NCBI GenBank assembly: GCA_900539265.1
Contig: UQBM01000004.1
Span: 7,982-71,981, forward strand
Direction of reading: 5' to 3'
Source: an uncultured Mollicutes bacterium
GTDB lineage: Bacteria > Bacillota_I > Bacilli_A > ML615J-28 > CAG-313
DNA: 64,000 nucleotides
Shown here in pieces: positions 46,280 to 58,103 of this stretch (the stretch's first letter is position 1; each line of letters opens with the position of its first letter). Under the pieces are notes generated by a model that worked only from the letters and a program-made list of their open reading frames with translations, ran no database searches and was not told the origin of the DNA. The position numbers and the translations under genes are program-made.

Positions 46280-46408
46280 ATTGTTTAACCTTCTTTTTAT
46301 AAATTTATACTTTATTATACAACAAAAAATTAAAAATAACAAAACTATTGAAAAAAAAAACAAATAGTGGTAAAATAAACCAAATAGATATCATTTTGAG
46401 GTTAACAT

Positions 46409-47026
46409 ATGAAACTTAATGAAAAAGGATTATTAATTGTTATTTCGGGACCATCTGGAGTTGGGAAAGGAACGATTCGTAAAGCGCTATTTCAAAGAAC
46501 TGGCCATAATTTAGATTTTTCTGTTTCAATGACTACTAGAATACCAAGAGAAGGAGAAATTAATGGTAAAGATTATTTCTTTGTAACCAAAGAAGAATTT
46601 GAACAGGAAATAAAAAATGATAATTTATTAGAACATGCAAAATTTGTCAATAACTACTATGGAACTCCTAAAAATAAGGTATTAGAAAAATTAGAAGAAG
46701 GAAAAGAAGTAGTATTAGAAATAGAGGTTCAAGGTGCTCTTCAAGTGAAAGCGAAAATGTCAGATGCTGTGTTTATTTTTATTGCTCCACCATCTTGGAA
46801 AGCTTTAGAACATCGATTAACTAACAGGGGAACAGAGACAAGTGATATCATCATTGAGCGGTTAACTAAGGCAAAAAATGAAATAATGTTTGCTTCATCT
46901 TATGATTATATTGTTATCAATGATGAAGTAGAAAATGCAGTTGATAAAATCATTGCAATTATTAGAGCAGAACATGCCAAGTGTGAAAGAGCACTAGAAG
47001 GATATTATAAATTAATGGAGGAATAA
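46409..47026 (+). CDS. gmk: Guanylate kinase
   Basis: 205 aa. GPSGVGKGT P-loop. Confidence 0.9.
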   Translation: MKLNEKGLLIVISGPSGVGKGTIRKALFQRTGHNLDFSVSMTTRIPREGEINGKDYFFVTKEEFEQEIKNDNLLEHAKFVNNYYGTPKNKVLEKLEEGKEVVLEIEVQGALQVKAKMSDAVFIFIAPPSWKALEHRLTNRGTETSDIIIERLTKAKNEIMFASSYDYIVINDEVENAVDKIIAIIRAEHAKCERALEGYYKLMEE

Positions 47027-47028
47027 TT

Positions 47029-47259
47029 ATGAGTCAAATGGAAAATATTAATCAAGAAAGAGATGGGCTTCGTTACCCATCAATCGATGAATTAACAGAT
47101 AAATCTTCATCTAAATATAAATTAGTGATTGCAGCTGCCAAACGTGCTAAAGAAATTGATGCATCAAAAAAGAGCTTTCTTCCGGAAACAAAGAATATTA
47201 AAAGTATTGGAATTGCCTTAGAAGAAATTATTGCTAACAAAGTAGAGGTAATTGATTGA
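47029..47259 (+). CDS. rpoZ: DNA-directed RNA polymerase subunit omega
   Basis: 76 aa. Conserved gmk-rpoZ synteny, and NKYKLVIAAAKRAKEI matches the RpoZ core. Confidence 0.85.
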   Translation: MSQMENINQERDGLRYPSIDELTDKSSSKYKLVIAAAKRAKEIDASKKSFLPETKNIKSIGIALEEIIANKVEVID

Positions 47260-48770
47260 TGGAAAAAGCTTTAGAAGTCTATCAAAAGACCAGAAAAAAA
47301 CTTAATGCATTTAACTATGCCATGTATATGATTAGTTGGGATTCTGAAACTGAGGCTCCTGTGGGATGCTTAGAAGAAAGGTCTAAACAAATTGGTGAAC
47401 TTGTTTCAATGATGTTAGAAATATCTCATTGTAAAGATTATATTGAGGCAGTAAAAACTTTATATAGTAAAAAAGAAGAGTTAGAAACAGATTTAAAATT
47501 AGAAATTATTAAAGTTTGGGAAGAATTAGAAAAAGAATTAAAAATTCCTGAAGCAGAACTCATCGAATATGAAATGTTGTTAGCGAAAGCCAATAACATT
47601 TGGTGTGAGGCTAAACTTAATAATAATTATGAATCATTTGCTCCTATTTTGGCCAAAATCATAAATTGGCAAAAAAAATATATTAAATATTTGGAAACAG
47701 ATAATTTAAAAGGTTATGACGTTTTGTTAAATGACTATGAAAAAGGTTTTACAAGAAAAGAATATGATGAATTTTTTGATGTTTTAAAAAAAGAATTAGT
47801 TCCTTTTGTCAAAAAGATTACCTCATTAAAACCTTTTGATGATTCTTTTGTATATAAAAAATATGATATTGACAAGCAAAAAGAGTTTGCCCATTATTTG
47901 ATGGATGTTATGTGTTTTGATAAAAAGTTTGGTTTGACTAAGGAATCAGAGCATCCGTTTACTTCTGGATATGGTACTACCGATGTGAGAGTTACTTGTC
48001 ATTATTATGAAAATCTTTTGACATCAAGTATTTTTTCAATGATTCATGAATTAGGGCATGCTACTTATGAAAGACAATGTGATAGCAAATATGATGATAC
48101 AGCTTTAAGTGGTGGTACAACAATGGCTATGCATGAATCACAATCTCGTTTCTATGAAAATATTGTTGGTAGAAGTTATCCATTTTGGTGTAAACATTAT
48201 CCTGTTTTACAAAAGCTATTTACTGAAAATTTGCATAATGTAACAGTTGATGATTTTTATTATGCTATAAATAAAATTGAAAATACGCTTATTAGAACAG
48301 AGGCTGATGAACTTACTTATCCTCTTCATATTATGGTTAGATATGATATGGAGAAAGCAATAATTGAATCAAATATTGATGTAAACGAATTACCAAAACT
48401 TTGGAATAAATTATATAAAGATTATTTAGGAATTGAGGTGCCCAATGATGCTAAAGGTATTTTACAAGATGTTCATTGGGCTGGTGGTTCATTTGGATAT
48501 TTTCCTACTTATGCTTTAGGAAGTGCTTATGCGGCCCAACTTTATCATCAAATGAAAAAAGAACTTAATATTGATGAAGTTTTTGGAGCAAATGATTTGT
48601 CTAAAGTGAATGAATGGTTAAAAGAAAAAGTTCATCAATATGCAGGTTCAAAAAGTCCAAAAGAAATATTATTAATGGTAACTCATGAAGAATTTAATCC
48701 AAAATACTATCTTGAATATCTAAAAGAAAAATATTCAAAAATATATCAATTAACTAATGAAAAAAAATAA
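47256..48770 (+). CDS. M32 family carboxypeptidase (carboxypeptidase Taq-like)
   Basis: 504 aa. HELGHATYE zinc motif plus the M32-specific IRTEADELTYPLHI and GYFPTYALG motifs. Confidence 0.85.
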   Translation: MMEKALEVYQKTRKKLNAFNYAMYMISWDSETEAPVGCLEERSKQIGELVSMMLEISHCKDYIEAVKTLYSKKEELETDLKLEIIKVWEELEKELKIPEAELIEYEMLLAKANNIWCEAKLNNNYESFAPILAKIINWQKKYIKYLETDNLKGYDVLLNDYEKGFTRKEYDEFFDVLKKELVPFVKKITSLKPFDDSFVYKKYDIDKQKEFAHYLMDVMCFDKKFGLTKESEHPFTSGYGTTDVRVTCHYYENLLTSSIFSMIHELGHATYERQCDSKYDDTALSGGTTMAMHESQSRFYENIVGRSYPFWCKHYPVLQKLFTENLHNVTVDDFYYAINKIENTLIRTEADELTYPLHIMVRYDMEKAIIESNIDVNELPKLWNKLYKDYLGIEVPNDAKGILQDVHWAGGSFGYFPTYALGSAYAAQLYHQMKKELNIDEVFGANDLSKVNEWLKEKVHQYAGSKSPKEILLMVTHEEFNPKYYLEYLKEKYSKIYQLTNEKK

Positions 48771-48778
48771 GGAGGTTA

Positions 48779-49576
48779 TTGATGGCAAAAATAGTCTTAA
48801 AAAGAAAAAAATCAGATAAGGATACATATTTAGTTCGCAATGTAAAAAGTGCATATGGTGAATTAAAATATGATGATACTTTATTAGAAGAAGATCAAAT
48901 AGTTGAGCCAGTAGGAAAAATTCATGAGGAAGCATTAAAACAAGAATTAATTCTTAATGAGGCGCATAAACAAAAAATAGAAGAAGAAAAACGCCTTGTT
49001 GAAGAAAAAGCAAAAAAAGAAGAAGAGAAACGCCTTGCTGAAGAAAAAGCAAAAAAAGAAGAAGAAGAGAAACGTCTTGCTGAAGAAAAAGCAAAAAAAG
49101 AAGAAGAGAAACGCCTTGCTGAAGAAAAAGCAAAAAAAGAAGAAGAGAAACGCCTTGTTGAAGAAAAAGCAAAAAAAGAAGAAGAAGAAAAACGCCTTGC
49201 TGAAGAAAAAGCCCATATGGAAGAACTTCGAAGACAACAAGTTAGTGTAGCAGAAGTTAAAGAGATTATATCTGATGAGACTGCTAGCATTTTAATTGAA
49301 AAAGAGTTTGATGAAGAGAAGATTTTTGGGAACAAAAAGGGAATTATTAATATTGATATAATATCACGTAACTTTAAAGCTGGTGATATTGTTACAGTAA
49401 ATACTTTAAAAGATAAAAAATTAATTGACAAAAATATTTGTTTTGTTAAAGTTCTTGCAAGAGGAGTTATTGATAAACCATTAGTTGTAAAAGCACAAGA
49501 TTTTTCCTTAGATGCAGTTAAAATGATTCAACTTACAGGTGGTAAGGTCGTATTATTAGATAAAAAGAAATATTAA
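48779..49576 (+). CDS. uL15 (ribosomal protein L15)-like C-terminal domain protein with Glu/Lys-rich tandem repeats
   Basis: 265 aa. The C-terminus GIINIDIISRNFKAGDIVTVNTLKDKKLI...VKVLARGVIDKPLVVKAQDFSLDAVKMIQLTGGKVVLL aligns with the uL15 C-terminus (..vNLdkL....eG.evt.e.L...gli.......vKiLGnG.l.kkltVkA.kfS.sA.e.ie.aGG..evi). The middle carries about 6 copies of EE(E)KRLAEEKAKKE. Confidence 0.55.
   Translation: MMAKIVLKRKKSDKDTYLVRNVKSAYGELKYDDTLLEEDQIVEPVGKIHEEALKQELILNEAHKQKIEEEKRLVEEKAKKEEEKRLAEEKAKKEEEEKRLAEEKAKKEEEKRLAEEKAKKEEEKRLVEEKAKKEEEEKRLAEEKAHMEELRRQQVSVAEVKEIISDETASILIEKEFDEEKIFGNKKGIINIDIISRNFKAGDIVTVNTLKDKKLIDKNICFVKVLARGVIDKPLVVKAQDFSLDAVKMIQLTGGKVVLLDKKKY
48980..49212 (+). 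repeat. Near-perfect 39/42-bp tandem repeat (about 6 copies) inside the uL15-like CDS
   Basis: Unit GAAGAAGAGAAACGCCTTGCTGAAGAAAAAGCAAAAAAA. Copies at 48980, 49019, 49058 (42 nt), 49100, 49139 and 49178 (partial), with only 1-3 substitutions per copy. Confidence 0.9.
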
Positions 49577-49580
49577 AATT

Positions 49581-49613
49581 AGAAACCTTCTGTGTCTTAT
49601 AGAAGGTTTTTTT
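49581..49613 (+). terminator. Rho-independent terminator after the uL15-like gene
   Basis: AGAAACCTTCT-gtgtcttat-AGAAGGTTT hairpin followed by TTTT. Confidence 0.65.
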
Positions 49614-49696
49614 AAAATTTAATCATTTTTATTGGTATATTATTTAGATTCTTTGTAATAATAATATTGCAAAATATTAATAAGTGAGTATCTAAC

Positions 49697-49725
49697 TTGA
49701 CTTTGAAGGCTAAAATGAGTATAAT
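49697..49725 (+). promoter_or_regulatory. Sigma-A promoter of the str operon (TTGACT, 17 nt, TATAAT)
   Basis: TTGACT at 49697-49702 and TATAAT at 49720-49725, about 110 nt upstream of rpsL. Confidence 0.5.
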
Positions 49726-49835
49726 ATTAGAGGTTATGTTTTGACTATTGTCAAGACTATATTTTTTGAAGTATTGAAACACGTGGAAATGTGGAATATA
49801 CATCAAATAACTAATAAATGAAAGGAGAAAAAAAG

Positions 49836-54486: not shown

Positions 54487-55002
54487 ATGACAAAAAAAAG
54501 TATAAGTTTAATAGTAATTTTTGTTTTCTTTTTTAGCATATGCGGTTGTAATAAACAAAATAAAATAGATTATAATTTAAGTTATAATCAAAATGAGGCA
54601 TTTGGTTACAAAAAACTAGAAAAAGGTACACAACTTTATAGTAATGGTTTAATAAAATCATTAGAAGAATTAAAAAAGGAATGTACTGAATGGAACAATG
54701 ATGCTTATAATGAAAGTTCGGATGGGTATTCTAGTGATTTGAATCAAAAACTAAGAGATTATGATGAGAACTATTTTAAAGAAAATGCTCTCATTATAGT
54801 TACATATGAAACGGCCAATTACCTTAAAACAAAACTTAAACACATTATTGTTGATGGATCTACCTTAATCGTAAATATCAAACAAACAACTAAAATAGGA
54901 AATTATAGTACGGAGGCCTATTTTTGGTCAATGTTAATTGAGATTAAAAAGAATGACATAATCAATGTCGATGAACTAAAGGTTAATTGTAATAAAAGGT
55001 GA
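54487..55002 (+). CDS. Small lipoprotein, unknown function
   Basis: 171 aa. Signal peptide with lipobox SICGC. GGAGG RBS. Confidence 0.55.
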   Translation: MTKKSISLIVIFVFFFSICGCNKQNKIDYNLSYNQNEAFGYKKLEKGTQLYSNGLIKSLEELKKECTEWNNDAYNESSDGYSSDLNQKLRDYDENYFKENALIIVTYETANYLKTKLKHIIVDGSTLIVNIKQTTKIGNYSTEAYFWSMLIEIKKNDIINVDELKVNCNKR

Positions 55003-55007
55003 TAAAT

Positions 55008-56226
55008 ATGAAGAAAAGAATTTTAACTATAGTATTATTTTTATTTTTTTCAATAGTTTTAAGTTAAAATACTGTAAAACTATTTGCATATGAAGATTCT
55101 AGCAATTTAAGTATAAATCAAGTATATTTATCAAATTTATCTCAAAGCATGAAAATATACTCTCAAATTATACTTGAATTTCAAGTTAGAACAGATTTTC
55201 ATAATAATAAAGAATATATGATTTATAACGAAAATTATGCTGGAGCATATATAGATGATACTGGAATGTTAAATATAGCAGTGGTAAATAATAATTCAGT
55301 TAATTATATGTCAAGTAATCATAGTCAAGTTATTTATCAAGAGTTTACCTATTCGTACAATTTTCTTCAAAAAGTATTAAATTCAATTGAAGATATTATG
55401 CTAGAAAGTAGTGTTTATATTGTAGGTATTGATGATGAATTAAATCATGTTTTTGTTGAATTAAATGATGAAACAGATGTAGAGGTTGTTATTCAACATC
55501 TACAAAATGAAGAGTTGTATGAACCTAATGCATTATATTTTGAAGTAGATTCTGATGGTGGATTGTCAGAAACATCAAATATAACTTATGGTGGTGAATC
55601 AATTTTTCATAGATATACAACGGGAATTATATCTAGAGGTACATTTGTGGTTAACGCTGTTTGTAATGATACGGGAAGACTTGGAGTCTTAACTAATGCA
55701 CATGTGGCACCATATGATACAACAATGAGTTATGGTGGGTATTGGGATGAATCAATAAGTAGTTTTACTGAAGAAATCTTCTTAGGGACGGCTTCAAAAT
55801 CGAGACAACGATTCAATGTGTATATAAAGAAGATCCTTCAATTATAGCTACATTAGATATAAAGGTCGTTGAAGATACAAGTACAATAAAAGTTAGATTA
55901 AAATATGGATTTGATATTCGAGAAGATGGTACAATTAGTGGAACAGAAGTTACTAGTGGTTTAGGTAATGTAATTGAGGTAGCACAATTTCCAGATGTAA
56001 CGATACATAAAGGTTATACTAGACTTATTTGTTTAGGTGATGATAGCCCAAATTCGAGTATTCAAGCATTTACATGGACTGCATATCAAGAAGAAGGAGA
56101 TAACGGCATGGTTACTGTAAGTTCATTTGACACCATTCAAGGTACTGTTTCTGGATGGGTTACAGTGAAGGGTGTATATCAATATAATAGTAACTATGAA
56201 GTATATATTAAAATTTATGTAGAATA
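55008..56226 (+). pseudogene. Secreted trypsin-like (S1B/glutamyl-endopeptidase-like) serine protease pseudogene: signal peptide, in-frame TAA, body, then frameshift
   Basis: ATG at 55008 encodes the signal peptide MKKRILTIVLFLFFSIVLS and is followed by an in-frame TAA (55065-55067). The same frame stays open to 55847 and contains GTFVVNAVCNDTGRLGVLTNAHV (the S1B His-motif context). A second frame, open from 55772 to 56226, overlaps by about 75 nt and continues the protein (...LICLGDDSPNSS...) with no start codon. Confidence 0.45.
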
Positions 56227-56495: not shown

Positions 56496-58103
56496 GTGAA
56501 AAGAAGAGTTATGTTTATTCTTTTAAGTTTTGGATTATTGATGATGTTAACTTCATGTTTTATGGCAACAGAAATAGTAAGCGTGAAATTATCATCAACT
56601 GATGTTCCGAAACTATTTGAAGTAAATGAATCATTTGATATTAAAGATCTTCAATTAGAAGTAACATATAATGATGGTAAAGTCTTTAATGTAATGGTAG
56701 ATGAATCAATGATAACTAACTTTGATTTAACAACTATTGGATTTAAAAAGGCTATAATCAACTACAAAGATTTTACATTAACATATGATTACCAAGTAGT
56801 GGAAACCAAATATCTAGTTGTAAAATTTAATACAGATGAAGAATTACCTGAAATTGAGGATCAATTAGTTTATTATGGTGATATGGTAAAAAAACCTAAT
56901 GATCCTAAAAAAGAAGGCTTTGAGTTTTTAGGTTGGTATATTGGCGATGTTATCTATGATTTTAATAGTAAAGTTAATACAAATTTAGAACTTGTAGCAA
57001 AATTTAGAAAAACCTTAAATGTTTATCAGACAGAGGTAGTATTGGCATTAGAAGAATTTGCAAATAAATTTGACTCAAGATTATATCGCGAGGATGAATT
57101 TGTAGAAATTCTTACAATAATTGAAGATGGAAAAAGAGCAATTGCTGAAGCAACTACGAATGAAGAGGTAGATTTAGCCTATAATCAAACGGTTGAAAAA
57201 GTAAAGGCAATAAAAAACTTCTGTAGTTTATTTTTAGATGTATTTGCAACTTACAATATTGATGATTATTATAGTGAAGAGTGGGAAAAAATACTTGCAA
57301 TAAGAGATTTAACTGTTGATACACTTAATAATTATAAGGGTGGAGCACCATTACCAATTGCAACTTATTTAAAAGGTCTTGATGATTTAACAAAAGTTGT
57401 AACTAAAGATCAAGATCATGAACTTGCAACTTATTTAAAAACAAATAAAATAATGGAACTAAATAAGTATTTCACAAATATGAATAAAGAATATTATACA
57501 GATGATGCTCTTGAGTTAATGAATACTATATTAGAAGAGGGTATTGATACAATAAATTTAGCACTTAGTAGAAAAGATGTTGTTGATGCTTACTTAGTAG
57601 TTATTGAAACATTAGATAGTGTTGAAAAATGCCCTAAATATAATGATATTTTAGAACTTTTAGCATATATTGATGTTTTAAACTTGAATAATTATTATGC
57701 CGTTCAACAAGAAGAGTTAAAAGATATATATTTTGAATATGCAAATATTTTAAGAAATATGCCATTAAATGAGGATACAACTACTTTGTTAGAAGAAGCA
57801 AAGATGAAAATGGATGAAGTTATAACAATAGAAGAAGATAAGGTTATAGCTGATATTCTTTTGGAAAAATGTTTAGCAGATTTTAATAATTTGTATGAAA
57901 CTCTTCTTGCTACGTATGCAGAAGAAATTAATGCTTTAGAGATGGCAGAGTATGCACTTGAAGAAATTGAAATGACTTATCAAAATTATGTTGACAAAAT
58001 TAGCACAGCTTTGGGATCTGCTGCTATTCAAGTAGCTTATGATGAGGCAGTAGCATATTTGGAAGAAGATATTTTAATGATTATTGAAATGTATAGTTGG
58101 TAA
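56496..58103 (+). CDS. Lipoprotein with a Listeria-Bacteroides (Flg_new/InlB B-repeat) domain
   Basis: 535 aa. Lipobox MMLTSC. GDMVKKPNDPKKEGFEFLGWYIGDVIYDFNSKVNTNLELVAKF matches the Listeria-Bacteroides repeat (P..P.+.Gy.F.GWy.......fdf...i.....L.AkW). Confidence 0.65.
   Translation: MKRRVMFILLSFGLLMMLTSCFMATEIVSVKLSSTDVPKLFEVNESFDIKDLQLEVTYNDGKVFNVMVDESMITNFDLTTIGFKKAIINYKDFTLTYDYQVVETKYLVVKFNTDEELPEIEDQLVYYGDMVKKPNDPKKEGFEFLGWYIGDVIYDFNSKVNTNLELVAKFRKTLNVYQTEVVLALEEFANKFDSRLYREDEFVEILTIIEDGKRAIAEATTNEEVDLAYNQTVEKVKAIKNFCSLFLDVFATYNIDDYYSEEWEKILAIRDLTVDTLNNYKGGAPLPIATYLKGLDDLTKVVTKDQDHELATYLKTNKIMELNKYFTNMNKEYYTDDALELMNTILEEGIDTINLALSRKDVVDAYLVVIETLDSVEKCPKYNDILELLAYIDVLNLNNYYAVQQEELKDIYFEYANILRNMPLNEDTTTLLEEAKMKMDEVITIEEDKVIADILLEKCLADFNNLYETLLATYAEEINALEMAEYALEEIEMTYQNYVDKISTALGSAAIQVAYDEAVAYLEEDILMIIEMYSW

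Follow-up and report, generated by a model that had tools for sequence, protein, structure and literature searches.

A strain-variable tandem repeat joined to a C-terminal uL15-like domain in a probably cytoplasmic protein of RF39-like Bacilli

Within the window, by which we mean the whole 64,000-nucleotide stretch of DNA that was analysed, a gene for a uL15-like protein follows gmk, rpoZ and an M32 peptidase gene on the same strand (Table 1). The ATG at 48782 is the likelier start of this gene, rather than the TTG that opens the corresponding frame in the program-made list, because AGGAGG stands 6 nt upstream of it and homologues open with MAKIVLKR; gene callers also chose the start at MAK on other contigs. 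The exact protein of 264 residues was found on 17 public contigs. Its C-terminal 108 codons, compared with three orthologues, gave dN/dS values of 0.09-0.15, which shows the gene to be genuine and subject to purifying selection.

The operon that ends with the uL15-like gene probably begins at the promoter-like site before gmk. The str operon (rpsL-rpsG-fusA-tuf) begins 241 nt downstream, and, as far as signals in the DNA can tell, the uL15-like gene is the last of the gmk-rpoZ-M32 peptidase operon and would be transcribed apart from the str operon, because a candidate terminator and a promoter lie between the two. The terminator-like hairpin has a folding energy of -14.2 kcal/mol (z = -4.47), and 0 of 200 shuffled sequences folded as well; it is missing from a consensus terminator scan, the criteria of which differ from those of the RNA fold. 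The first-pass annotation had placed the gene outside the ribosomal-protein operons. This stands with respect to transcription, but not with respect to position, as the gene abuts the str operon here and in all of the nine Bacilli-type loci (9/9). Only the Bacilli branch has rpsL next to the gene, an arrangement that could reflect inherited synteny. The gene is flanked by the M32 peptidase gene on its 5' side and by rpsL on its 3' side, and no ribosomal-protein genes of the spc type (the rpmD-rplO-secY setting) surround it; Rfam and tRNA scans of the window returned nothing.

Table 1. Features of the uL15-like gene and its surroundings (positions in the window).
Feature	Position	Strand	Description and basis
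Promoter-like site	46348..46376	+	TTGAAA-17-TAAAAT with extended -10 TG, before gmk; consensus match only
gmk	46409-47026	+	Operon member; 2-nt gap to rpoZ
rpoZ	47029-47259	+	Operon member; overlaps M32 peptidase gene
M32 peptidase gene	47256-48770	+	Operon member; 11-nt junction to uL15-like gene
Shine-Dalgarno sequence	48770..48775	+	AGGAGG, read directly; 6 nt before ATG 48782; overlaps last base of M32 peptidase stop codon
uL15-like gene, coding sequence	48782..49576	+	264 aa plus stop; program-made ORF list starts at TTG 48779
Basic N-terminal peptide	48782..48853	+	Residues 1-24; MAKIVLKRKKSDKDTYLVRNVKSA; net charge +6; consensus MAKIxLKRxxSxxxTYLxR
Non-repetitive acidic segment	48854..48973	+	Residues 25-64; net charge -7; little conservation between lineages (alignment)
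Tandem array	48980..49219	+	Six units (39, 42, 39, 39, 42, 39 nt); 0-3 substitutions each (unit table); encodes EEE(E)KRL(A/V)EEKAKK
Conserved acidic helix segment	49220..49324	+	Residues 147-181; starts EELRRQQVSVAEVKEIISDETASILIEKE; net charge -6; alignments and family consensus
Globular domain like C-terminal half of uL15	49325..49573	+	Residues 182-264; net charge +9; Pfam PF00828 match at nt 49346-49552
Intrinsic-terminator-like hairpin	49581..49611	+	14-bp stem, 3-nt loop, then U-run; RNA fold
Sigma-70-like promoter	49697..49725	+	TTGACT-17-TATAAT, 11/12, best of the region; upstream of rpsL; consensus scan

The protein has no hydrophobic segment, signal peptide or membrane segment, nor do nine Bacilli-type relatives have a hydrophobic segment, and it is probably cytoplasmic, as judged from these sequences. 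In the alignment of the nine Bacilli-type homologues, R8, T15 and R19 of the N-terminal peptide are invariant. Eight such N-termini, searched against Pfam and, as a profile, against the PDB, matched nothing at E<=10 in either; a resemblance to bS21 was dropped on these two empty searches. Species whose proteins have diverged by 10-30% in sequence share three conserved parts, namely N-terminal motif, acidic helix and uL15-like domain.

We found that the C-terminal domain matches Pfam PF00828 (Ribosomal_L27A) over residues 190-258 and profile positions 2-72 of 72 (E 1.2e-11, 45.3 bits), above the gathering threshold of 21.5 bits. When the PDB was searched with a family profile, only uL15 or L18e chains were found, the best being residues 69-143 of Enterococcus faecalis uL15 (E 6.5e-12). 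An AlphaFold model of the domain (pLDDT about 85) has the fold of the uL15/L18e globular domain, and uL15 chains alone were among its top Foldseek matches. Over residues ~69-143, identity to Firmicutes uL15 is 30-40%; the two share the motifs NxD, VT, KVL (KVLxxG), FSxxA and GG, and almost all positions that are conserved in canonical uL15 are kept. Sequence profiles and the predicted model thus mark the domain as a true homologue of the C-terminal half of uL15, and the first-pass proposal of a uL15-like C-terminal domain was borne out by both.

By the same sequence comparisons, the protein does not appear to be canonical uL15 (RplO), because the first 68 residues of uL15, a Gly/Arg/Lys-rich extension, are absent (PDB uL15 chains align from residue 69) and because the whole protein scores 41.1 bits against the rplO equivalog model TIGR01071, and its C-terminal 118 residues taken alone score 44.3 bits, where the curated cut-off is 77.95 bits; the match takes in only positions 69-143 of the 144 in that profile. 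At conserved surface motifs, the family departs from uL15, with ARG instead of GxG and KMIxLTGG instead of IExAGG. The domain carries a net charge of +9 in the window protein and +5 in the family median, compared with +1 in the C-terminal domain of canonical uL15, and 25 positions are invariant among 12 diverse family members. A canonical rplO was not found in the 64-kb window or in 80 genome-scan loci of about 20 kb with an approximate Bacillus subtilis query that did pick up the paralogue domain in the loci; the canonical gene presumably coexists elsewhere in the genome.

Tandem Repeats Finder placed the array at 48971-49212, with a period of 39 nt, 6.0 copies, 90% matches and a score of 379, and also reported a higher-order period of 120 nt with 95% matches. 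The units are near-identical, lie head to tail and have lengths that are multiples of 3, which makes the array a coding VNTR, and the six near-identical DNA copies seen at first pass were thereby recovered. The same annotation had described the repeat as the N-terminal two-thirds of the protein, which overstated its extent; it covers residues 65-146, about 31% of the protein. These 82 residues are 74% Glu, Lys and Arg and 12% hydrophobic, lack Gly and Pro, and contain 43 opposite-charge pairs at i/i+4 and 34 at i/i+3 without a heptad hydrophobic seam; the net charge is slightly acidic. In composition and charge pattern, the spacer matches ER/K single alpha-helix (SAH) linkers. Pfam matches in the repeat (ATAD3_N, Borrelia_P83, TolA and others) are of the low-complexity kind and far below cut-offs.

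We observed 1, 2, 6, 7 or 8 copies of the repeat in contigs or proteins of the same species, always in frame and with flanks 99.7-99.9% identical where checked, as had been predicted from the near-identity of the units. In a sister species, arrays of 1, 2, 3 and at least 7 units were seen. Alleles with one or two copies stem mostly from short-read contigs, including those of Logan. In six scaffolds (L088-L093), the array is interrupted by a gap of 100 N, and L001 and L006 likewise have runs of N within it. If all strains carried a similar long array that short-read or k-mer assemblers had collapsed, these gaps, the short-read origin of the low-copy alleles and the near-identity of units across 240 nt would be accounted for. 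We consider this quite unlikely as an explanation of the polymorphism, as contiguous assemblies also disagree in length, at 264 residues (17 contigs), 265, 292 and 293 residues, with seven units on a contig of 1.89 Mb. Furthermore, the 2-copy allele is no simple collapse of the array in the window, which lacks the first unit of that allele (GAG AAA CGT ... GTT), and the short arrays of the sister species (1-3 x 36 nt), which typical reads are expected to span, occur in about 50 distinct protein clusters, with the 3-copy form (P0035) on 276 contigs. Length polymorphism of the array is thus supported, although short-read assemblies often collapse or gap the array and some low-copy alleles may be assembly collapses.

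The domain recurs in a large family of Bacillota proteins, for which an exhaustive HMMER search gave 3,334 representative clusters when E<=1e-3 was required and 1,427 under E<=1e-10; 216 species genomes carry the family, some with two copies (L014/L039; L051/L055). Among the 150 best matches, the uL15-like domain stops within about 11 residues of the C terminus in every case (150/150), in proteins of 108 to 5,835 residues. Throughout the family, the domain is preceded by the acidic helix motif V-S/T-x-x-E-a-x-x-l-i-S-D-E-x-A, a segment that was modelled as two short helices in a Clostridial relative. Alignments and the family consensus find the same motif, followed by the domain at the C-terminal end, in the window protein, which thus belongs to the family. 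Transmembrane segments were predicted in 105 of 144 representatives; most members have N-terminal membrane helices and acidic repeat linkers before the domain, and in some the module forms the tail of a giant surface protein. We read the Lys-rich loops beside the hydrophobic segments, under the positive-inside rule, as placing the tail of membrane-anchored members in the cytoplasm. The window protein is without the N-terminal anchor of the majority architecture and represents a reduced, soluble form, composed of basic peptide, ER/K spacer, acidic helix and basic uL15-like domain.

The repeat units of the linkers (5, 9, 12, 13/14 and 16-19 residues) are mutually unrelated, and their expansions took place independently, in different lineages, at one and the same position, which argues that length, and not sequence, is what the linker contributes. 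One lineage (L004) has a Pro-rich EEPVV linker that is unable to be helical, and rigidity may therefore not matter. At 71 Clostridial loci, the commonest neighbour was an ABC/FtsX transporter cluster (13/71) and the others were scattered, so that a conserved partner gene in Clostridia was rejected; these loci have no conserved translation-related neighbour, and no co-occurring protein partner was seen in the genomes examined. A phage link was likewise rejected, with no tblastn match in 50,697 phage records and none in PHROGs, as was descent of the N-terminal peptide from the middle domain of the Clostridial proteins (hhalign probability 0.15%, E 0.39). Among defence systems, PADLOC had no match for the window protein, and the Clostridial middle domain alone weakly matched the candidate PDC-S18 (E 5e-6). 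NCBI and JGI pipelines call relatives 'uL15 family ribosomal protein' or 'L15', and in our literature search neither bacterial uL15 paralogues, nor a 'uL15 family ribosomal protein', nor PF00828 domain architecture turned out to be the subject of any paper found. This large group with a uL15-like module at the extreme C terminus is an undescribed family and a new result.

Several readings of the protein can be weighed against these observations. The pipeline names suggest an alternative ribosomal protein, that is, a specialised uL15 paralogue at the uL15 globular-domain site of some 50S subunits, comparable to the paralogues of L31, L33 and S14. The strong likeness to the uL15 C-terminal domain in sequence and fold, down to KVLxxG and FSxxA...GG, would fit, as would the str operon that adjoins the gene in nine loci. 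We nonetheless hold this to be highly improbable, given the missing 68-residue extension and a score of 41 bits where the rplO equivalog cut-off is 78. Relatives of 108-5,835 residues, mostly with transmembrane helices and including giant surface proteins, are hard to reconcile with such a role, some genomes carry two family copies, and a spacer varying from 1 to 8 units is unexpected in a stoichiometric component of the ribosome. There is next to no chance, in our judgement, that the gene is non-functional, the decaying remains of an rplO duplicate that came by chance to be joined to low-complexity sequence. The protein does contain no more than half of uL15, with low complexity elsewhere, but the dN/dS values, the conservation of the N-terminal motif, acidic helix and domain across species, the good ribosome-binding site, tight operon packing and own terminator, and a family of thousands of members all speak against decay.

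Of the two alternatives offered at first pass, a ribosome-associated paralogue or a new use of the uL15 fold, the latter fits better, as the domain ends hundreds of multi-domain, mostly membrane-anchored proteins. In its strongest version, the fold would have been fully repurposed to bind protein, DNA or anionic lipids, with no role at the ribosome or with RNA, as a generic cytoplasmic-tail module for the localisation or signalling of membrane proteins. We see this as possible but unlikely. It agrees with the strictly C-terminal position of the domain behind membrane anchors and on the tails of giant adhesin-like proteins, with the lack of a conserved translation-related neighbour at the 71 Clostridial loci and with the changed surface motifs. 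However, nearly all uL15-conserved positions are kept and the domain has become more basic, which suits a polyanion such as RNA, and the genomes examined hold no co-occurring protein partner.

The best explanation of the whole, which we put at about an even chance of being right, is that the window protein is a cytoplasmic tether or adaptor with a basic uL15-like binding head, a helical spacer and a second attachment point. The head would be the domain derived from uL15, which is more basic than the ribosomal original, and its likeliest partner may be structured RNA, the ribosome or a pre-50S particle, with another polyanion possible. The ER/K repeat is predicted to form a single alpha-helix and could serve as a semi-rigid spacer to which each unit adds about 1.9-2.1 nm, so that a one-copy spacer would measure about 2 nm and an eight-copy spacer about 16 nm. 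The second attachment point might be the basic N-terminal peptide, replacing the Clostridial membrane anchor in the RF39-like Bacilli lineage, although this role is a guess. Spacer length would be altered by replication slippage or by unequal recombination between the near-identical 39/42-nt units; we infer slipped-strand mispairing as the mechanism, and unequal recombination fits equally well. As all units are multiples of 3 nt, the outcome would be variation in length and not on/off switching, and, in a cytoplasmic spacer, changes of copy number may be without effect on fitness. The uL15-like piece is very unlikely to be a normal component of the ribosome. A bolder extension of the tether model, which we think improbable, is that the module mimics the uL15 globular domain and docks onto the 50S subunit, a pre-50S particle or other structured RNA at a defined distance from its anchor. 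This would define a new class of bacterial ribosome or RNA tethers, in which the Clostridial members are membrane anchored, in some cases with the module on the cytoplasmic tail of a giant surface protein, and the form in RF39-like Bacilli is soluble with a strain-variable helical 'ruler'. A counterpoint to ribosome docking is that the canonical uL15 site on the 50S subunit should already be occupied.

Known bacterial paralogues of ribosomal proteins are mostly duplicates of the whole protein; here, just the surface-exposed half of a universal ribosomal protein appears to have been reused. That half is the terminal module of thousands of non-ribosomal proteins, among them giant surface proteins that bear it on their tails, from little-studied gut Clostridia and RF39-like Bacilli. 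The 'L15' labels given by annotation pipelines can mislead counts of ribosomal markers, estimates of genome completeness and phylogeny pipelines. A module that still binds rRNA or ribosomes would make the family a new means of positioning ribosomes in the bacterial cell, whereas one that does not would be a clear case of a ribosomal fold gaining a new partner. The repeat is a natural experiment, in which one species carries the same protein with a spacer of 1 to 8 units.

Compared with uL15 (RplO; TIGR01071, PF00828), the window protein shares the C-terminal alpha/beta globular domain (uL15 residues about 69-143), but lacks the Gly/Arg-rich residues 1-68 and has 181 extra residues of unrelated sequence. 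Its gene lies between an M32 peptidase gene and rpsL, its domain is more basic (+9 against +1), and its relatives are membrane-anchored multi-domain proteins. Among these, the Clostridial relatives (for example P0094, L013, L020 and L078) have the acidic helix and uL15-like module in common with it at 42-57% identity, behind a repetitive acidic linker. Unlike the window protein, they possess between one and three transmembrane helices at the N terminus, or else an entire giant extracellular region, and a middle domain of 150 residues with a fold like those of YjbR, YdhG and the MotA C-terminal domain.

The spacer is similar in composition, in charge pairs and in the absence of Gly and Pro to the ER/K SAH domains of myosin VI and X, INCENP and the KER region of CAF-1. 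SAH linkers stand between two conserved modules, as this spacer does (PMC4183817, PMC5378345, PMC10335832). In contrast to those domains, the spacer is bacterial, is built from tandem units near-identical in DNA and is polymorphic between strains in unit number. As its net charge is slightly acidic, it is not expected to bind DNA as the CAF-1 KER region has been described to do.

Length-variable tandem repeats are found in Mollicutes and Gram-positive bacteria in surface antigens under immune selection, such as the Mycoplasma Vsa and Vlp proteins and the streptococcal alpha C protein. As in those proteins, the in-frame, near-identical repeats of the gene in the window vary between strains, presumably by slippage or unequal recombination, but the product is probably cytoplasmic, with no signal peptide or membrane segment, and has no built-in on/off switching. 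Ribosomes are tethered to membranes by the C-terminal tails of Oxa1 and YidC2 and by Mba1; the tails bind close to the exit tunnel, away from the position of uL15. With these tethers, the family shares no sequence or fold relationship, and they would serve as a functional analogy only if the basic tail of its membrane-anchored members docks ribosomes.

The C-terminal part of the protein is uL15-like. Pfam PF00828 (Ribosomal_L27A) matched residues 190-258 (E 1.2e-11; 45 bits, gathering score 21.5), and NCBIfam TIGR01071 (rplO_bact) scored 41 bits, below its curated cut-off of 78, with only positions 69-143/144 matched. Searched against the PDB, a profile built from 12 diverse family members retrieved no structures other than uL15 and L18e chains, led by the Firmicutes uL15 of Enterococcus, Listeria and Staphylococcus (E 6.5e-12 to 4.7e-11); these always aligned from their residue 69 on. 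In an AlphaFold model of the C-terminal 118 residues, pLDDT was ~85 across the domain, and the 50 best Foldseek matches of this model in the PDB were without exception uL15 chains. The first-pass annotation had aligned this C terminus with uL15 and proposed an HMM search and a structure prediction as checks; the significant HMM, profile and fold matches bear it out. Nearly all conserved positions of canonical uL15 are kept in the family's domain, but the 68-residue N-terminal extension of canonical uL15 is absent, and the whole protein is something other than uL15. The domain's net charge of +9 compares with a family median of +5 and ~+1 in canonical Firmicutes uL15 C-terminal domains.

Reading of the sequence gave two candidate start codons, TTG 48779 and ATG 48782. 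We took the latter, which is likelier and yields 264 aa, because its spacing from the AGGAGG site is a normal 6 nt and MAKIVLKR forms the first residues of every homologue. Purifying selection acts on the gene: dN/dS over the C-terminal 108 codons was 0.09, 0.15 and 0.11 against three orthologues, and we consider a non-functional fragment vanishingly unlikely.

Features of the gene, its surroundings and its product
Feature	Position	Strand	Basis or remark
RqcH/NFACT gene, 566 aa	44663-46363	-	NFACT_N E 3e-97 + NFACT-R_1
Promoter-like site before gmk	46348-46376	+	consensus match
gmk	46409-47026	+	upstream, same strand
rpoZ	47029-47259	+	upstream, same strand
M32 carboxypeptidase gene	47256-48770	+	directly upstream
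AGGAGG site	48770-48775	+	read from sequence
ORF	48779-49576	+	mechanical ORF list
Tandem array	48971-49212		Tandem Repeats Finder: period 39, 6.0 copies, 90% matches
Six repeat units (39, 42, 39, 39, 42, 39 nt)	48980-49219	+	AAACGYCTTG-anchored unit table
14-bp hairpin running into U-run	49581-49611	+	-14.2 kcal/mol, z = -4.5
Best promoter match of region, 11/12, before rpsL	49697-49725	+	consensus scan
Basic N-terminal peptide	residues 1-24		net charge +6
Acidic stretch	residues 25-64		net charge -7
Repeat	residues 65-146		net charge -3
Acidic helix	residues 147-181		net charge -6
uL15-like domain	residues 182-264		net charge +9

From gmk to the gene the cistrons are closely packed, with junctions of 2 nt, a 4-nt overlap and 11 nt, and the ORF list continues with rpsL, rpsG, fusA and tuf. 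Given these junctions, the hairpin and the promoter match before rpsL, the gene is the final one in a housekeeping operon; it adjoins the str operon directly and is probably not co-transcribed with it. The RqcH/NFACT homologue, a ribosome quality-control factor, is divergent from the gmk operon, and the entire order is kept in most of nine related Bacilli-type loci. The 241-nt spacer before rpsL (49577-49817) had no recognised leader. The whole 64-kb window (G+C 28.8%) had no Rfam match that reached the family's gathering score, and scans for tRNA and tmRNA genes found none. A few kilobases past tuf, 56496-58103 (+) encodes a 535-aa protein that carries a Listeria-Bacteroides repeat domain; in a related complete contig its counterpart (L087:19115-20579) precedes a 2,070-aa S8 peptidase/LRR surface protein. 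The ORFs between tuf and the 535-aa protein (54487-55002 and 55149-55847) had no Pfam match. Among named genomes, 'Staphylococcus sp. CAG:324' is nearest, with a domain identity of 89%, and other relatives are labelled uncultured Bacilli, Acholeplasmatales or Anaeroplasma. Read from these labels, the lineage is RF39-like and associated with the gut. Two loci carry Bacteroidota labels that probably reflect mis-binning or mislabelling: L007 ('Prevotella sp.' MAG) has Bacilli-type synteny and L067 ('Bacteroidaceae' MAG) a Clostridia-type family member.

With unit boundaries anchored on the AAACGYCTTG core, the repeat units differ by 0-3 substitutions and encode EEEKRL(V/A)EEKAKK(E), and Tandem Repeats Finder also reported a higher-order period of 120 nt (95% matches). 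Six near-identical copies of 39 or 42 nt had been noted in the first-pass annotation and were recovered; the repeat had also been said to fill two-thirds of the protein, and it covers about a third. The repeat's 82 residues comprise 74% E+K+R, with 43 i/i+4 opposite-charge pairs; each unit holds a single Leu or Val, and Gly and Pro are absent. Such a composition is the hallmark of ER/K single alpha-helices, known semi-rigid spacers that link two functional modules (PMC4183817, PMC5347031, PMC5378345, PMC10335832). If helical, each unit would add ~2 nm at 0.15 nm per residue. Unrelated units have expanded at the same position in different lineages, which suggests that the linker's contribution is distance, not a particular sequence. 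Because all units are multiples of 3 nt, slippage or unequal exchange alters length and keeps the reading frame. Each unit also includes an A7 run, where slippage is possible in principle.

Copy number varies between strains, as the first-pass annotation had expected. The exact 264-aa protein occurs on 17 public contigs, and alleles of the window species, defined by an identical or 99%-identical C-terminal region, carry one unit (197 aa), two (210 and 211 aa), six (264 and 265 aa) or eight (292 and 293 aa); a 1.89-Mb contig (GCA_046989645.1) of this species has seven. A sister species has 9, ~21 and ~19 protein clusters with one, two and three twelve-residue units and one further cluster with at least seven; a third has 186-, 198- and 210-aa forms; in a fourth, an EEPVV unit varies from 2 to 17 copies. 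The array is also a recurrent assembly breakpoint, with N-runs of 100-136 nt inside it in eight public assemblies: six scaffolds (L088-L093, about 1150-1430) have an N-gap of 100 nt (136 in one), and N-runs fall within L001:9605-10357 and L006:9686-10363. Since short-read assemblies gap here, some low-copy alleles could be collapses. That the polymorphism is an assembly artefact only is improbable: contigs with the two-unit allele match the window at 99.7-99.9% identity in both flanks, the missing block being the sole difference, and the allele's first unit has a combination of substitutions absent from the window array, so it is no trivial collapse of that array. In the seven-unit array (L087:9735-10600), one 40-nt unit with A7 shortened to A5 frameshifts the gene; as other genes on this contig are split (an M32 peptidase and a phosphoribosyltransferase), this is likely a sequencing error.

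The family is widespread in Bacillota. In a scan of one genome per species, 216 genomes encoded a relative; 9 of the best 80 were of the Bacilli type and 71 were Clostridia (Christensenellales-like, Borkfalkia, Gallimonas and others). Searched exhaustively with HMMER, 1.84 billion representatives yielded 3,334 matches at E<=1e-3, with 1,427 passing E<=1e-10 and 184 passing E<=1e-30. The 150 best were proteins of 108-5,835 aa, and in all of them the domain ended at most ~11 residues from the C terminus. In Clostridia the module ends proteins of 116 to ~3,400 aa in a recurrent order: either one to three transmembrane helices at the N terminus or a giant extracellular region that has Listeria-Bacteroides repeats and leads into membrane helices; a repetitive Glu/Pro-rich linker; often a middle domain of ~150 residues (RYxKSFTAKLIQ...); a conserved acidic helix (V-S-x-x-E-a-x-x-l-i-S-D-E-x-A); and finally the uL15-like domain. 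A crude hydropathy scan predicted transmembrane segments in 105 of 144 representatives, and Lys-rich loops after the hydrophobic segments would, by the positive-inside rule, place the tail in the cytoplasm. Judged by its sequence, the window protein is a reduced, soluble form of this architecture. All Bacilli-type members keep an N-terminal MAKIxLKRxxSxxxTYLxR motif, for which Pfam and PDB profile searches detected no relative.

No conserved neighbour gene was found among the 71 Clostridial loci. Two separate module genes occur in one MAG in RGIG8733 (L014/L039) and in A15_L4_384384_idba_bin.61 (L051/L055), so the family can be multi-copy per genome. Giant proteins (ORFs of 2,274-3,409 aa) end in the module at L026, L027, L038, L058, L066, L073 and L078, with membrane helices preceding the tail; Listeria-Bacteroides (Flg_new) repeats occur in a related giant located upstream (L018:530-7804) as well as in at least one fused member (L080). 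The middle domain is present twice in L037, L066, L071 and L078. It may also occur without the uL15-like module, as protein clusters P0160 and P0169 (592-593 aa) match a Clostridial query over that region and PF00828 is absent from their record.

We put at about even chances that the protein is an extraribosomal tether, with a uL15-derived head, a second attachment at the N terminus and an ER/K spacer. The basic head would bind a polyanionic partner, the N-terminal peptide would act as the second attachment point in place of the membrane anchor of Clostridial relatives, and the helix would set the distance between them. For such a tether we tentatively name structured RNA or the ribosome as the most plausible partner, because the ancestral domain binds these and nearly all uL15-conserved positions are retained. 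A fully repurposed module, binding protein, DNA or lipid, is possible but on the doubtful side. Database names of relatives ('uL15 family ribosomal protein', 'ribosomal protein L15', 'L18e/L15') would suit a true alternative ribosomal uL15; this reading is very improbable, since the N-terminal extension is missing, the family has a membrane-protein architecture and the spacer varies in length. Demonstrated ribosome binding, if true, would make the family far more interesting. Our literature search found no paper on a bacterial uL15 paralogue or on the present architecture, which joins a known domain to a linker of known kind; the combination is new and widespread.
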